The position numbers and the translations under genes were made by a program. A stretch of DNA of 51,761 nucleotides from Patescibacteria group bacterium (GTDB lineage: Bacteria > Patescibacteriota > Patescibacteriia > UBA2196 > GWA2-42-15), in NCBI GenBank assembly GCA_022709795.1, contig JAKLID010000002.1, forward strand, positions 1 through 51,761, in the 5' to 3' direction. The notes under the pieces are model-generated. The model was not told the origin of the DNA. It searched no databases and was given only the letters and a program-made list of their open reading frames with translations. Within the stretch, counting starts at the first letter, position 1. The number at the start of each line of letters is the position of its first letter. Positions 1,720 through 50,800 of the stretch are shown here, piece after piece.

Positions 1720-1759
1720 TAAATATTTGTATATTGGTAATTAATTCGCAATTCGCAGG

Positions 1760-2653
1760 TTACGCCATTGATCGGAGTTGTCTGATTCTTTCTTCTACCG
1801 GCGGGTGAGTAGAGAACAATTTTTTAAATCCGCTGGTTGCTTTAGCTCCAAATGGACTGGCAATATACAAATGTGCTGTCGCCGTATTCGCTTTGATTAG
1901 CGGCGTAGCATTGCTAGTTATTTTTTCCAAAGCTCGCGCCAACCCTTCCGGATATCTGGTTAGAAGCGCGCCGTCAGCATCAGCTAGGAATTCTCTTTTT
2001 CTGGAAATTGCCAGTTTGATTAATTCCGCGATGATCGGAGACAGGATAATTAATACCACCCCGACCACCATTAAAATCGCCCCTACTTGTCCGCCGCCTG
2101 AAGAAGAATCTCTCTTGCGCCACCTCGATCGCAAAAAGTAATCACTCAAAATTGATATCGCTCCCACCAATACCACTACGATCATCATTATTCTGATGTC
2201 ATAGTTTTTGATATGTGACAGTTCGTGCGCGATCACACCCTCCAGTTCTTCGTTTTGTAAACCTTCAATTATACCCTGCGTTAGCGCCACCGAAGCATGC
2301 TCGGGATCGCGGCCCGTGGCAAAGGCATTCATGCCTGGATCAGGAATAATATAAATCTTGGGCATGGGTGTGCCAGCCGTGATACATAGATTTTCTACCA
2401 GCCGGTAAATATAGGCATTGTCATTGACGGTGATTGGTCCCTTGGCACCCGCCGCGGCCAGGCTGATTTTATCCCCAGCAAAATAACTTAGGAGTGTCAT
2501 CCCGAGCGAGATTACCACTGCAATCACCATCGGGCCATAGCCATAGTCAGGATAAATTTGTCCGATCACCCAACCCAAAAACAAAATGAACACCAAAAAC
2601 AGCGCCATTAAAATTGTTGTTTTTCTTTTGTTAGAATCAATCTGCTTATACAT
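1760..2653 (-). CDS. htpX: Zinc metalloprotease HtpX (peptidase M48)
   Basis: HELSHIKNYD HExxH motif, four TM segments, typical HtpX N-terminus and C-terminal THPPVEERI motif. Confidence 0.9.
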   Translation of the reverse strand: MYKQIDSNKRKTTILMALFLVFILFLGWVIGQIYPDYGYGPMVIAVVISLGMTLLSYFAGDKISLAAAGAKGPITVNDNAYIYRLVENLCITAGTPMPKIYIIPDPGMNAFATGRDPEHASVALTQGIIEGLQNEELEGVIAHELSHIKNYDIRIMMIVVVLVGAISILSDYFLRSRWRKRDSSSGGGQVGAILMVVGVVLIILSPIIAELIKLAISRKREFLADADGALLTRYPEGLARALEKITSNATPLIKANTATAHLYIASPFGAKATSGFKKLFSTHPPVEERIRQLRSMA

Positions 2654-2660
2654 ATAAACA

Positions 2661-2723
2661 CGGAACTTATGCGGATAAACGCGGAACTTATGCGGAACAG
2701 GGCGGAACTTACGCGGAATTTTT
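2661..2723. repeat. Heptad-phased repeat arm (three 21-nt units) flanking the GxxExxY gene
   Basis: Reads cggaact|tatgcgg|ataaacg|cggaact|tatgcgg|aacaggg|cggaact|tacgcgg|aattttt. It overlaps the last codons of the gene. An imperfect complement lies at 3105-3140 (ctgcattagttcggccaagttcagccttggttcggcgg). Confidence 0.7.
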
Positions 2724-3098
2724 GGTAAATATTTTGCGTTCTATTTCCACGCCATCTTCAGCCCCAAAATTAATTAAAAATCCCAAGTGGTAACTAGAAC
2801 CCTTTAGATACGTCCAAAATTGTTTTCTGTCGCTGATCAGAATCATCGGTTTACATTTTAATTCAATTATTATCTTATTATCAACGATCAAATCAGGTAC
2901 ATAACTACCAATTAATCGCCCATCTCGTACGACGTTTATTCTTTTTTCTTTCTCCACCTTGAATCCTAATTTTAATAAGTCGTAATAAAGAGAATTATGA
3001 TATATCTTTTCCTTGTGATAATTTCTATATTCTTTATAAATAGCAAAAACCGCACCCCTTATTTTATAAGATTCTTGCTCGTAAAGAAGCTCCTCCAT
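2709..3098 (-). CDS. GxxExxY family protein (PD-(D/E)XK nuclease-like fold)
   Basis: N-terminal IRGAVFAIYKEYRNYHKEKIY matches the G..E..Y signature region, followed by YVPDLIVDNKIIIELKCK (D..ExK-like). The gene is AT-rich and flanked by complementary repeat arms. Confidence 0.8.
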   Translation of the reverse strand: MEELLYEQESYKIRGAVFAIYKEYRNYHKEKIYHNSLYYDLLKLGFKVEKEKRINVVRDGRLIGSYVPDLIVDNKIIIELKCKPMILISDRKQFWTYLKGSSYHLGFLINFGAEDGVEIERKIFTKNSA

Positions 3099-3145
3099 AT
3101 TTTTTCTGCATTAGTTCGGCCAAGTTCAGCCTTGGTTCGGCGGTA

Positions 3146-3700
3146 TCAGAATTTTACTTCCACGTTTTTTCTCTCTTCAGCGTTTTCCACCTCGAAGAAT
3201 TCATACTTATTAAATTTCAACATGCCGGCCACCATATTGTTTGGGAAGACCTGGATCTTGGTGTTGAAGTCGCGCACATTACCGTTATAAAATCTCCTAG
3301 AAGCCTGGATTTTATTCTCGGTATCTGAGAGCTCATCTTGGAGTTTGGCAAAATTTTCCGAAGCTTTGAGCTGTGGATAATTTTCCGCTACCGCGAACAA
3401 ACTCTTCATCGTATCCATCAAGGCATTCTCTGCTTTGGCTTTGGCCTCCATACCCTTGGCGCCCATCGCCGCGGCCCTAGCTTCAGTCACCTTGGTAAAT
3501 AACTCTCTTTCATGCGTCGCGTAGCCCTTGACCGTTTCCACTAGGTTGGGGATCAGGTCATGCCGTCTTTTGAGCTGGACATCGATGTCCGATGCCGCCT
3601 CATCAGTACGATTTCTCAGCTTTATCAGGCCATTATAGACGCCAATCAGCCACAAAATGACCACTGCCGCTATGGCTAGTACCACATACAATATTGTCAT
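3146..3700 (-). CDS. lemA: LemA family membrane protein
   Basis: N-terminal TM, then [43 protein letters not shown], which is typical of LemA. Confidence 0.9.
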
Positions 3701-3875
3701 ATGTATTTCTTTTTTTAACCAGTCGGTTCTTCGAGAAACACGCTGGTTAAATTAATTATTTACTAAAAATTCTTTCGCTCGACTAATTATAATGTATCGC
3801 CTTTAGTCCCATAAGTCAATTTTTTTATTATAAACATATCCACTGCCGGCCAGTGTAGGAAGAAATTGTTTTTTA

Positions 3876-3884
3876 TGTTATAAT
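3876..3884 (+). promoter_or_regulatory. Extended -10 element (TGtTATAAT) upstream of pilM
   Basis: tgttataat lies 70 nt upstream of the pilM ATG. No good -35 is visible. Confidence 0.35.
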
Positions 3885-49575: not shown

Positions 49576-49596
49576 GCGATAAAATAAATTTGTGTT

Positions 49597-49704
49597 TTTA
49601 TCTGTTCTAATCCGTTCTGAATCTGCTATCATCTGTTGTTAATATCCAAAATTATTTAACAACAGATTTAAACAGACAGGAAACGGATGGCAACAGATAG
49701 CAAA
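49597..49704. repeat. Heptad-phased inverted-repeat spacer after gatA (empty stem)
   Basis: Left arm atctgtt|ctaatcc|gttctga|atctgct|atcatct|gttgtta. Right arm ttaacaacagatttaaacagacaggaaacggatggcaacagatagcaaa. Confidence 0.65.
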
Positions 49705-49753
49705 ATTTATTTTGGGTTTGAAAATTTAAAATTAAAAATTAAAAATTATTTTT

Positions 49754-50002
49754 ATGACCATCAAAATATACTCCACTCCGATCTGTCCTTATTGCCATAT
49801 GCTCAAAGATTATCTCAAGGGCAAAAATATTCCTTTTGAGGATATTAATGTCGCCACTGACGAGGCGGCTGCTGATGAAATGGTTGTCAAAAGCGGCCAG
49901 ATGGGCGTGCCAGTCACCATCATCACCACTGATGCTGGCGAGGAAAAGGTCATTGTTGGTTTTGATAAAAGCCAAATCAACCAGCTCTTAGGAATTAACT
50001 AA
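49754..50002 (+). CDS. Glutaredoxin-like protein (NrdH/YruB-type)
   Basis: IKIYSTPICPYCHMLKDYL, and a later GVPV motif. Confidence 0.85.
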   Translation: MTIKIYSTPICPYCHMLKDYLKGKNIPFEDINVATDEAAADEMVVKSGQMGVPVTIITTDAGEEKVIVGFDKSQINQLLGIN

Positions 50003-50008
50003 AAAATT

Positions 50009-50695
50009 ATGGACAACCTTACTCCCGTTGCCGCACCCCCCAAAAAAAATACTCACCAGACACTCTTTATATTTTTGTTTGGCCTAGTTTTGGGCATCGC
50101 TATTTTTTCCAGCTACCATTATTATCAGTTGGCCCATCGCATGGACAATCAAAATTATGAGTCCACAGAGCCCACTCCGGTTTTTTTTAATATCAGTGAG
50201 GAGGATCATATCTGGGGCGCCAAAGACGCCAAAGTCACTCTGGTAGTTTTCAGCGATCTGGCCTGCCCTTATTCCCGCGAATATTTTGCCAATCTACAGG
50301 AACTTATGAATACCCGCGCTGATCAGATGCGCATTGTCTGGCGTCATTTGCCAGTCAGCTTGAATAATGTCGCTTCTGTCTCTGCCGCCATCGCCGCCGA
50401 GTGCGCTGGTGAGCAGGGCAAATTTTTTGAATATATTGCCGAACTTTATCCCCATCAAGATCAATATGGCCCAGAGTTTTATGCCGCTAGCGCTAGCGAG
50501 CTGGGTTTGAATGTTGATAATTTTTCCGCCTGCGTTTCTAGCGGTAAATATGATACCAAGATCGAAGCTGATTATAATGAAGGTCTGGCCAAAAATATCG
50601 CTGGCACCCCAGCTAGCTTTTTGGACGGCCGTTATCTCCCCGGCGCTCTGCCCTTGAGCCAGCTGGAAGCCCTGATTGATCCGCTCATCAAATAA
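50009..50695 (+). CDS. DsbA-family thioredoxin-fold protein with CPYS (monothiol) active-site motif
   Basis: N-terminal TM. VVFSDLACPYSREYF stands where DsbA has CxxC (tgc cct tat tcc at 50264-50275). AAECAGEQGKFFEY is typical of the family. Confidence 0.8.
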   Translation: MDNLTPVAAPPKKNTHQTLFIFLFGLVLGIAIFSSYHYYQLAHRMDNQNYESTEPTPVFFNISEEDHIWGAKDAKVTLVVFSDLACPYSREYFANLQELMNTRADQMRIVWRHLPVSLNNVASVSAAIAAECAGEQGKFFEYIAELYPHQDQYGPEFYAASASELGLNVDNFSACVSSGKYDTKIEADYNEGLAKNIAGTPASFLDGRYLPGALPLSQLEALIDPLIK

Positions 50696-50711
50696 CTACG
50701 AATTTTTAGTT

Positions 50712-50800
50712 TTATAATTTTTAAATAAATTCTAATTTTTAATGTTTAAAAATTTAGATTTAAGTTTTATTTATAAAATTAAAAATTAAAAATTATTTTT
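50712..50800. repeat. Heptad-phased AT-rich inverted-repeat spacer (empty stem)
   Basis: ...tttaatg|tttaaaa|atttaga|tttaagt|tttattt|ataaaat|taaaaat|taaaaat|tattttt. The 26-mer aaaattaaaaattaaaaattattttt (50775-50800) is identical to 49728-49753. Confidence 0.6.

Follow-up and report, generated by a model that had tools for sequence, protein, structure and literature searches.

Heptad-armed cassettes of the intervening-sequence type in protein-coding operons of CPR bacteria

The DNA described here, hereafter the window, is a 51.8 kb stretch (51,761 nucleotides) of bacterial chromosome with G+C content of ~43% and the majority of genes on the + strand, which carries a type IV pilus operon, typA, murB, maf, dnaG-rpoD, an HlyD/ABC exporter, ligA, gatCA, lgt, and five tRNAs. 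RpoD is 63–65% identical to its best GTDB representatives, the top matches being all from genomes of the Candidate Phyla Radiation (CPR), and the nearest named homologues of LigA (77–80% identity) belong to Candidatus Kuenenbacteria; thus the host is CPR-like, as the initial annotation of the window had labelled it. The unexpected element in this piece of genome is a cassette resembling an intervening sequence (IVS) of ribosomal RNA, in which a small gene of the 23S_rRNA_IVP family (hereafter IVP) is bracketed by inverted arrays of heptanucleotide repeats and which is placed in protein-coding operons of CPR bacteria.

IVP cassettes and hairpins with heptad arms

The window contains three IVP genes (PF05635, S23p, four-helix-bundle proteins), each enclosed by inverted arrays of 7-8-nt units, as follows.

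11218..11276 (+): 5' arm of cassette 1, eight heptads (CCAGAAA/CTAGATA/TCAGAAA...), directly after the pilC stop codon at 11217
11295..11669 (+): IVP gene 1, PF05635 E=1.7e-22, between pilC and a pilin gene
11703..11758 (+): 3' arm of cassette 1 (CCTGGTT/TCTGATA/TCTGATT/TCTGGTT), then a TGCTATAAT promoter-like box for the pilin gene
35264..35303 (+): 5' arm of cassette 2 (AAAACAC-type 7-8-nt units), 8 nt past the stop codon of an ABC ATPase gene
35304..35699 (+): IVP or bAvd-like gene 2, PF05635 E=1.9e-23, PF22296 E=2.6e-8
35696..35720 (+): 3' arm of cassette 2, overlapping the IVP stop codon and ending at the permease ATG (35721)
44687..44728 (+): 5' arm of cassette 3 (CAAGATA units), right after a TGGTATAAT promoter at 44653-44680
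44761..45123 (+): IVP gene 3, PF05635 E=1.6e-18
45196..45243 (+): 3' arm of cassette 3 (TTTGGAAATTGTA(T/C)CTTGT, 21-nt super-period), ending 1 nt before the ligA ATG at 45244

The arm words differ in each cassette, being CCAGAAA-type against TTTCTGG-type, AAAACAC against GTGTTTT, and CAAGATA...TTTTCAAATAA against TTATTTGGAAA...TATCTTG. In cassette 1 the 5' arm pairs with 11703-11758 over 56 nt at 71% (core of 31 nt at 84%), while pairing extends over 25 nt at 88% in cassette 2 and 30 nt at 90% in cassette 3, and the full-length predicted folds contain 50, 24, and 39 terminal arm-to-arm pairs, respectively. Around IVP gene 1 at 11295 alternative stem registers exist, since the inverted repeats I1–I4 are offset by multiples of 7. 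The register-slippable, gene-flanking stems proposed initially are found for some arrays, as in cassette 1, but are not general to spacers or genes.

For comparison with other genes, IVP homologues were picked by protein similarity and contig size only, and then each gene was scored by the best ungapped inverted repeat that its upstream flank of 110 nt makes with its downstream flank of the same length. The scores of 13 nonredundant IVP genes from 8 loci were 8–29, against a median of 8 and a 99th percentile of 11.5 in 525 control genes, and 12 of the 13 (3/3 in the window and 9/10 on other CPR contigs) exceeded this percentile (Mann-Whitney p=3.6e-9). Pooled IVP arms showed match rates of 0.59 at lag 7 and 0.43 at lag 8 against a background of ~0.30. 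Duplexes of cognate arms reached −44 kcal/mol versus −28±8.5 kcal/mol for noncognate ones, the cognate arm being the best partner in 8/12. All 12 cassettes with listed neighbours are co-directional with both of them. In the window the cassettes are flanked by pilC and a pilin gene, by an ABC ATPase gene and its permease gene, and by a promoter and ligA, and none of the three lies in rRNA. Array stems are specific to small inserted genes (the three IVP genes and, weakly, a PDDEXK_3 gene) and to a few hairpins free of open reading frames (ORFs). Among the control genes, two with strong flanking inverted repeats were met (L168 5331-5939 and L177 11910-12335), namely, a pilin gene with CAGAATTCAGATAGC-type arrays and a Y1 transposase gene with G+C hairpins like repetitive extragenic palindromes, and the former indicates that a non-IVP gene can be bracketed too. 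A profile search of 160 rpoD/dnaG loci yielded one further IVP gene (L009), and a sequence search of PDB with the product of IVP gene 1 gave no match.

Cassette 3 is a discrete insertion. In the Kuenenbacteria relative L186, whose LigA is 78% identical, the site is empty, and the pilin gene is followed by a terminator with TGATATAAT, six bases, and the ligA ATG, whereas in the window the distance from the same −10 box to the ligA ATG is ~555 nt occupied by arm, IVP gene, and arm; this comparison revealed no duplication of the target site at either ligA junction. Since the ATG of L186 ligA (9945-10000) stands only 6 nt past the TGATATAAT box, its mRNA is probably leaderless. The syntenic contig L183, with 80–87% protein identity, retains the cassette between pilC and the pilin gene, and there, as also in L184 and L185, a 1-nt deletion has broken the orthologue of IVP gene 1 (L183 9882-10252) into two ORFs, one of 40 aa and one of 83 aa. 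Both arms persist in L183, the 5' arm having 5 heptads versus 8 in the window, and the stem amounts to −43 kcal/mol.

Mechanical ORF calls overrun the repeat arms at 45160-45243, 18220-18270, and 37022-37082. The true starts are the ATG at 45244 for ligA, in agreement with the public 666-aa call, and the ATG at 37083 for a DUF5666 gene, while the TypA homology begins at about residue 20 of the long ORF call. For this reason 18208-18262, part of 36936-37082, and 45160-45243, regarded at first as spacers, are intergenic only once the over-long calls are corrected.

Hairpins built of heptads but without an ORF, three or four in the window, form the second class of paired elements.

26080..26192 (+): A/U-only hairpin, (AATTTTT)n and (AAAAATT)n, between rpoD and tRNA-Asn, with arms 26094-26139 and 26142-26187; dG −22.4 kcal/mol, z=−4.3
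50686..50800 (+): homologous copy of the 26080-26192 hairpin, adjoining the lgt start codon; arms of 53 nt at 74%, z=−3.8
49590..49712 (+): hairpin past gatA, ATCTGTT/ATCCGTT heptads against AACAGAT/AACGGAT; dG −36.9 kcal/mol, z=−6.3

The rpoD-proximal hairpin is kept in the relative L081 with different words on both arms (AATTTTC/GAAAATT), and the sequence of the hairpin past gatA is the same in three other samples. A/T-rich hairpins with 7/8-periodic arms numbered 1.17 per intergenic kb in those CPR loci that carry IVP genes, compared with 0.16 for CPR loci and 0.02 for non-CPR loci. With regard to spacer folding, the initial expectation is borne out by the ORF-less hairpins (z from −3.8 to −6.3 for those at 26080, 50686, and 49590) but not by spacers with direct, orphan leader arrays, which fold like shuffles (z from 0 to +1.7).

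Rho-independent termination was considered for these hairpins and rejected, because they are A/U-rich with arms of 40–50 nt, lack a G+C stem and U tail, and were not called by the terminator scan; canonical terminators are found elsewhere in the window, for example, at 44646-44668 and 47308-47330. Hairpins of (AATTTTT)n/(AAAAATT)n, many of which contain the core AATTTTTAATTTGAAATTTTTAATCAA, turn up again in CPR contigs that are only distantly related (L165 6142-6271 and 17462-17595, L112 5549-5686, L156 208-307, L132 18108-18245, besides 26094-26187 and 50701-50794 of the window). Contigs L161 and L162 of the same strain end inside such an A/T-only hairpin (matching 50730-50785 of the window), which indicates that these hairpins break short-read assemblies. 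Rfam at gathering thresholds gave only the five tRNAs over the whole window, and the hairpins matched none of its families.

Period-7 arrays in intergenic DNA

The excess of period 7 over dinucleotide shuffles that the initial annotation predicted was confirmed. In pooled intergenic DNA the lag-7 match rate was 0.335 versus 0.290 in the shuffles (z=7.7, with z=2.3 at lag 6 and z=3.7 at lag 8), and with gene starts corrected z reached 8.6 at lag 7, 3.8 at lag 14, and 1.5 at lag 21, with nothing at lags 28 and 35, while autocorrelation of coding DNA revealed period 3 only. Because lag 21 gave z=1.5 and lags 28 and 35 were null, register is held over 2-3 units only, and the idea of register kept over long runs, or of phase coherence past ~21 nt, had to be abandoned. 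Tandem Repeats Finder (TRF) detected 12 nonredundant period-7 arrays in 6.5 kb of intergenic DNA versus 0 in 45 kb of coding sequence, and 1–4 arrays in the window for each of the periods 8–11. An array of period 7, 8, 14, 16, or 21 is present in 15/37 spacers of at least 50 nt, so that the claim for most spacers was too wide; the other spacers of this size hold promoters, G+C-rich terminators, and a G+C-rich palindrome family. The repeat strings quoted at the outset are present in the DNA at, or within a few nt of, where they had been placed (the 42424 example is offset by ~3 nt), and both the identical 26-mer (49728 and 50775) and the ~31-nt repeat (1727 and 22275) were confirmed.

The signal is linked to the lineage. 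According to TRF the density of period-7 arrays per intergenic kb is 1.85 in the window, 1.0 in its closest relatives, 0.54 in 77 CPR metagenome loci (0.45–0.54 over ~100 CPR loci), and 0.10–0.11 in 58 non-CPR loci, where no period-7 peak is present; the density in the window is ~17x that of the non-CPR loci. The 77 CPR loci contain 58 period-7 arrays versus 23–26 for each of the periods 8–11. A Shine-Dalgarno (SD) motif precedes only 3/56 called genes of the window, the mean SD fraction being 0.12 in CPR loci versus 0.45 in non-CPR loci, and a weak negative correlation exists between SD fraction and period-7 array density (rho=−0.25, p=0.025). On the basis of these densities and this correlation the excess is considered lineage-linked rather than an artefact of A/T-richness.

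Across CPR loci 103 period-7 arrays represent 65 different words (necklaces), and the commonest of them, AAAAATT (10/103 arrays), is the only heptad to stand out clearly, though it is only slightly above random expectation; a single conserved word or binding motif is thereby ruled out. Co-directional CPR period-7 arrays end within 15 nt of a start codon in 47% of cases. A role of the arrays as promoters is ruled out, since the window promoters have canonical extended −10 boxes placed upstream of the arrays and none lies inside them. A complementary partner within 1.5 kb that beat all 40 null windows was found for 8/23 arrays tested, which does not agree with the proposal that each array has a complementary downstream partner; the leader arrays at 22830, 39913, 42418, 8878, 47812, 1727, and 22272 have no such partner within 1.5 kb. 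Most arrays are unpaired; those outside the cassettes and hairpins, with the gene associated with one of them, are the following.

1727..1757 (strand not assigned): copy 1 of a ~31-nt dispersed repeat ending in an AATTCGC doublet
2654..2717 (-): 21-nt periodic array (sense GTTCCGC-type words) downstream of the PDDEXK_3 gene
2709..3098 (-): small PD-(D/E)XK_3 gene, PF13366 E=1e-26, between M48 peptidase and LemA genes
8868..8916 (+): T-rich heptad run (TTTTTGA...) between pilB and pilT; L183 spacer diverged
18175..18265 (+): 11-nt and 16-nt arrays in the typA leader
22272..22305 (+): copy 2 of the ~31-nt repeat (TAATTCG x2.3), before the gene at 22312; L083 spacer only 11 nt
22830..22860 (+): unpaired leader array (ATTAGAA)x3.4 up to the dnaG ATG
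26053..26081 (+): unpaired (TAGTAAC)x3.9 just past rpoD
36936..37082 (+): (CAATTTC/CAAATCC)n array with a short complementary segment at ~37020-37042; ATG of the next gene at 37083
39913..39951 (+): unpaired leader array (ATACTAA ATACTTA)x2.6 before pspC
42418..42469 (-): two arrays in a 3' untranslated region (UTR), sense AAGGAAA x3 and AGGATTT/ATGATTT
47812..47848 (+): 16-nt tandem duplication in the gatC leader, downstream of a promoter at 47773-47800; single-copy in L186
49716..49753 (+): unpaired leader array (AAAATTA)x4 up to the glutaredoxin ATG, no partner above null windows

The arrays at 42418..42469 are assigned to a 3' UTR because they stand between a stop codon and the terminator at 42396-42411, and the pairing within 36936..37082 is weak, since this spacer as first delimited was unstructured (z=−0.1). 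The PDDEXK_3 gene is flanked by 21-nt and ~10-nt periodic arrays, of which that at 2654..2717 forms only a weak duplex with 3099-3145 (−36.8 kcal/mol, z=−2.6). This gene is missing from syntenic L183, where the M48 and LemA genes are adjacent and the spacer is a (TTGAAAA)n array; because of this absence it may represent a second kind of insert with flanking repeats.

Turnover between relatives is fast, and orthologous spacers in L081, L083, L183, and L186 contain other words, other copy numbers, or no array. Thus the dnaG-leader position has other heptads in L081 and L083, the pspC leader is a 5-nt spacer in L186 versus a 43-nt ATACTAA array in the window, and the AATTCGC doublet of the dispersed repeat is a lineage-specific duplication, since L183 has a single ATTCGTA there. 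Words of the type ATATTTGTATATT or ATTTGTA stand near gene ends (1723-1737, 18175-18200, and 22266-22283 in the window, L183 710-735, L083 1015-1035), and the ATATTTGTATATT word is also found as TTTGTAA-type arrays in the CPR loci L121, L158, L165, and L171.

Some other features of the spacers are separate from the heptad arrays. A G+C-rich palindrome family CCCCTCCTCnnnGAGGAGGGG, often followed by GGGGTGGTGGGAGA, occurs at 21474-21494, 21601-21621, 31377-31397, 31516-31536, and 51655-51675, with a variant at ~20110-20140 (5 matches vs 0.02 expected); its members are paired ~110–140 nt apart, and the spacers carrying them are the most structured of the window (z=−8.2 for 21439-21670). Near-identical ~75-nt leaders (cattt-gtcaaaacaagtataa...attataaa.taatttttatctt) precede consecutive paralogous leucine-rich-repeat genes at 27088-27163 and 27745-27815. 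For the tRNA at 47339-47409 (-) ARAGORN gives an odd two-base 'cc' anticodon while Rfam indicates a normal tRNA (56 bits), and a further tRNA at 47651-47720 (-) was found by Rfam and missed by ARAGORN.

Proposed excision of cassettes and rival explanations

The paired-array cassettes look like rRNA intervening sequences placed between protein-coding genes, because the complementary arrays form long stems around 23S_rRNA_IVP genes. RNase III cutting of IVS stems is established for Coxiella, Leptospira, and Salmonella rRNA. The explanation that is judged somewhat more probable than all others together combines slippage-type arrays with IVS-like cassettes, which RNase III possibly excises from operon transcripts. 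Confidence is high for its descriptive part, which comprises periodic arrays, IVP-specific stems, discrete insertion, and fast turnover. The mechanistic part (arm pairing, RNase III excision, and half-arm leader) is proposed by analogy and from predicted folds.

According to this scheme the SD-less, Kuenenbacteria-like genome of the window gathers short tandem duplications in noncoding DNA, mostly of 7 nt and sometimes of 8, 14, 16, or 21 nt, in the gaps from stop to start codon, from promoter to start codon, or from stop codon to terminator; such slippage arrays represent the phenomenon of short tandemly repeated repetitive (STRR) sequences or heptameric simple sequence repeats (SSRs), here with many A/T-rich words and quick turnover between relatives. 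Complementary array pairs are the two arms of an IVS-like element, a 20–50 bp stem around an S23p gene, which is inserted co-directionally between the genes of an operon or separates the first gene from its promoter, and the ORF-less heptad hairpins of ~100–120 nt would be a reduced form of the same cassette. If the polycistronic transcript runs through the stem, the arms would pair into long double-stranded RNA, and RNase III would presumably cut it, so that the insert would be excised and the flanking cistrons left with defined ends. The 3' half-arm could then serve as a short, G-poor, unstructured leader for SD-independent initiation downstream, and arms built of repeats would still pair in shifted registers after slippage; any benefit to the host is putative. 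The orphan arrays may have come from plain slippage that SD-less leaders tolerate or favour, or may be what is left of half-cassettes.

A number of observations weigh against this explanation. With the paired elements masked, lag-7 z falls to 4.8, which is no stronger than lags 3–5, and the link between orphan arrays and cassettes is a conjecture. The inverted-arm architecture is not universal for PF05635, because the IVP gene at L179 11473 has no arms, a Bacteroidota-like IVP gene (L177) has only a 14-nt inverted repeat, and the IVP copy of a Pseudanabaena plasmid, the sole plasmid match (no phage match was found), has no inverted repeat. Arm mismatches show no sense-strand G.U bias (12 G.U-compatible vs 15 A.C), and for this reason RNA pairing is not distinguishable from an inverted repeat acting at the DNA level. 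No clear compensatory substitutions could be counted between the arms of the window and L183, in a comparison of two full orthologous cassettes where unit rearrangements blur the alignment. Finally, no copy-number variation exists among four samples of the same strain, whose sequences are identical; hypervariability within one population is thereby ruled out, and, since relatives do differ, the arrays are taken to arise by tandem duplication on a between-species time scale.

The negative G.U test leaves room for a mechanism at the DNA level, in which the inverted arrays would be terminal inverted repeats (TIRs) of a mobile cassette, similar to miniature inverted-repeat transposable elements (MITEs) or insertion sequences or hairpin-targeting, with cruciform or hairpin DNA, not RNA, as the structure that matters and with IVP possibly aiding mobility. 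This is considered unlikely, though the best of the alternatives. It would account for the discrete ~555-nt insertion against the empty site of the relative, for the PDDEXK_3 gene likewise present in the window and not in L183, for the symmetric mismatches, and for the two homologous hairpin copies in one window, and it continues an old hypothesis that IVSs are remnants of transposition or that their ORF serves mobility (quoted in PMC4990558). However, no transposase or recombinase was found in the window and no target-site duplication at the ligA junctions, and arms that differ wholly between copies are unlike any TIR family, so membership in a MITE or TIR family was rejected; besides, the cassette between pilC and the pilin gene is vertically inherited, and every copy is co-oriented with its host operon.

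Somewhat less probable still is that the arrays are neutral slippage debris, produced by a polymerase-related bias toward 7-nt duplication, with complementarity derived from low complexity and no processing or binding. Slippage has already been proposed for the excess of heptamer SSRs in many bacteria (PMC4692102), and the diversity of words (65 necklaces in 103 arrays), the rapid turnover with arrays missing at orthologous L186 sites, the shuffle-like folding of orphan-array spacers, and the lack of wobble asymmetry in the arms are all in line with it. Yet debris of this kind does not explain why complementarity around IVP genes surpasses the control 99th percentile in 12/13 cases, is locus-specific, and outlasts ORF decay, why the hairpin after rpoD is conserved in L081 despite changed words, and why arrays are placed so strongly beside start and stop codons.

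Oligonucleotide-binding folds of the cold-shock protein (Csp) type cover ~6–7 nt, which would suit binding to heptads. It is improbable that a periodic RNA- or DNA-binding protein (ribosomal protein S1, cold-shock protein, CsrA, or a pentameric IVP on its own arms) has its sites in the arrays and regulates downstream translation, for although the arrays immediately precede start codons and the genome is SD-less, and the same layout and hypothesis are published for TAACTGA repeats (PMC4679880), they share no word, so that binding would have to be non-specific, they also occur past stop codons and in 3' UTRs, and nothing here ties the IVP protein to nucleic-acid binding. The dedicated binding partner suggested in the initial annotation is unlikely to be a single sequence-specific one, on account of the same word diversity.

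Precedents and significance

The closest precedent is the 23S rRNA IVS of Coxiella, in which an S23p ORF lies inside a 28-bp terminal stem cut by RNase III in its middle, 2-3 tandem GACAGAT heptamers of strain-variable number stand upstream of the ATG, and the ORF is decaying (PMC4990558). As in the Coxiella and Leptospira IVSs, the elements of the window have an ORF of PF05635 in the loop of a long terminal inverted-repeat stem of at least 20 bp and measure ~430–560 nt; tandem heptamers precede the ATG in the 5' arm (GACAGAT in Coxiella), and decay tends to affect the ORF but spare the stem (PMC4990558). Unlike rRNA IVSs, they are situated between protein-coding genes or in a 5' UTR and not in helix 25 or 45 of 23S rRNA, they number three copies in 52 kb, each with its own word, and RNase III cleavage is here a prediction. 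In CPR bacteria, IVP ORFs have been recorded inside rRNA insertions (PMC11270868).

With respect to the repeats themselves, an intergenic excess of heptamer SSRs with some inverted pairs, and a slippage hypothesis for it, were described in Xanthomonas, Nostoc, and many genomes (PMC4692102, citing Mrazek 2007). The comparison with STRR made initially is apt, since the present arrays, like STRR1-3 of Calothrix/Nostoc and GGGAATC of Xanthomonas, consist of tandem 7-nt units in at least 2 copies, are strictly intergenic, include some inverted pairs, and differ in length, copy number, or word between related genomes; those systems, however, reuse one or few G-rich words at many loci, whereas here 65 A/T-rich words make up 103 arrays and the host is a CPR bacterium. 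For Beggiatoaceae, Cyanobacteria, and Bacteroidetes, TAACTGA repeats were reported that closely precede start codons where ribosome-binding sites are scarce (MacGregor 2015, PMC4679880). Arrays of the window likewise end few nt before start codons (22830, 39913, 49721, 50775) in regions without such sites, but no single conserved heptamer is present here, no TAACTGA array appeared in the TRF output, and stems or IVP genes are not described for that system.

In phage T7 early mRNA, RNase III cleaves intercistronic hairpins, so that the mRNAs come apart and retain half-stems that stabilise them. Long hairpins between cistrons are likewise formed by the ORF-less heptad elements after gatA, dsbA, and rpoD, which could act so; the likeness is purely one of functional analogy, and the T7 sites are unique sequences with internal loops and not repeat arrays. 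The supposition that phased heptads had no precedent was too strong, given that heptamers are published in PMC4692102, PMC4679880, and PMC4990558, the last of these on the RNase III stem of the S23p IVS; in the literature searched, the coverage of which was incomplete, no paper was found that describes heptad repeats in CPR genomes or IVS-like cassettes anywhere but in rRNA.

A wider and more tentative proposal, at present rather doubtful, is that S23p/IVP genes in heptad stems might be general "intervening sequences" of CPR operon transcripts, with ORF-less miniatures, excised by RNase III, whose birth, decay, and slippage would make much of the STRR-like heptad landscape. If this is true, the unexplained heptamer repeats of other low-SD phyla could share the same origin.

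In summary, three puzzles of ~30 years, namely, the nature of STRR-type heptamers, the origin of rRNA intervening sequences, and the function of the S23p four-helix bundle, meet here in many independent copies that are not part of rRNA and for which a filled site can be compared with an empty one, and owing to this co-occurrence they become testable by comparative genomics and an RNase III assay. In practical terms, CPR gene callers over-extend ORFs through the arms (ligA, typA, and the gene at 37083) and CPR assemblies break at A/T hairpins. Models of CPR operons and 5' UTRs should therefore allow for inserted cassettes.

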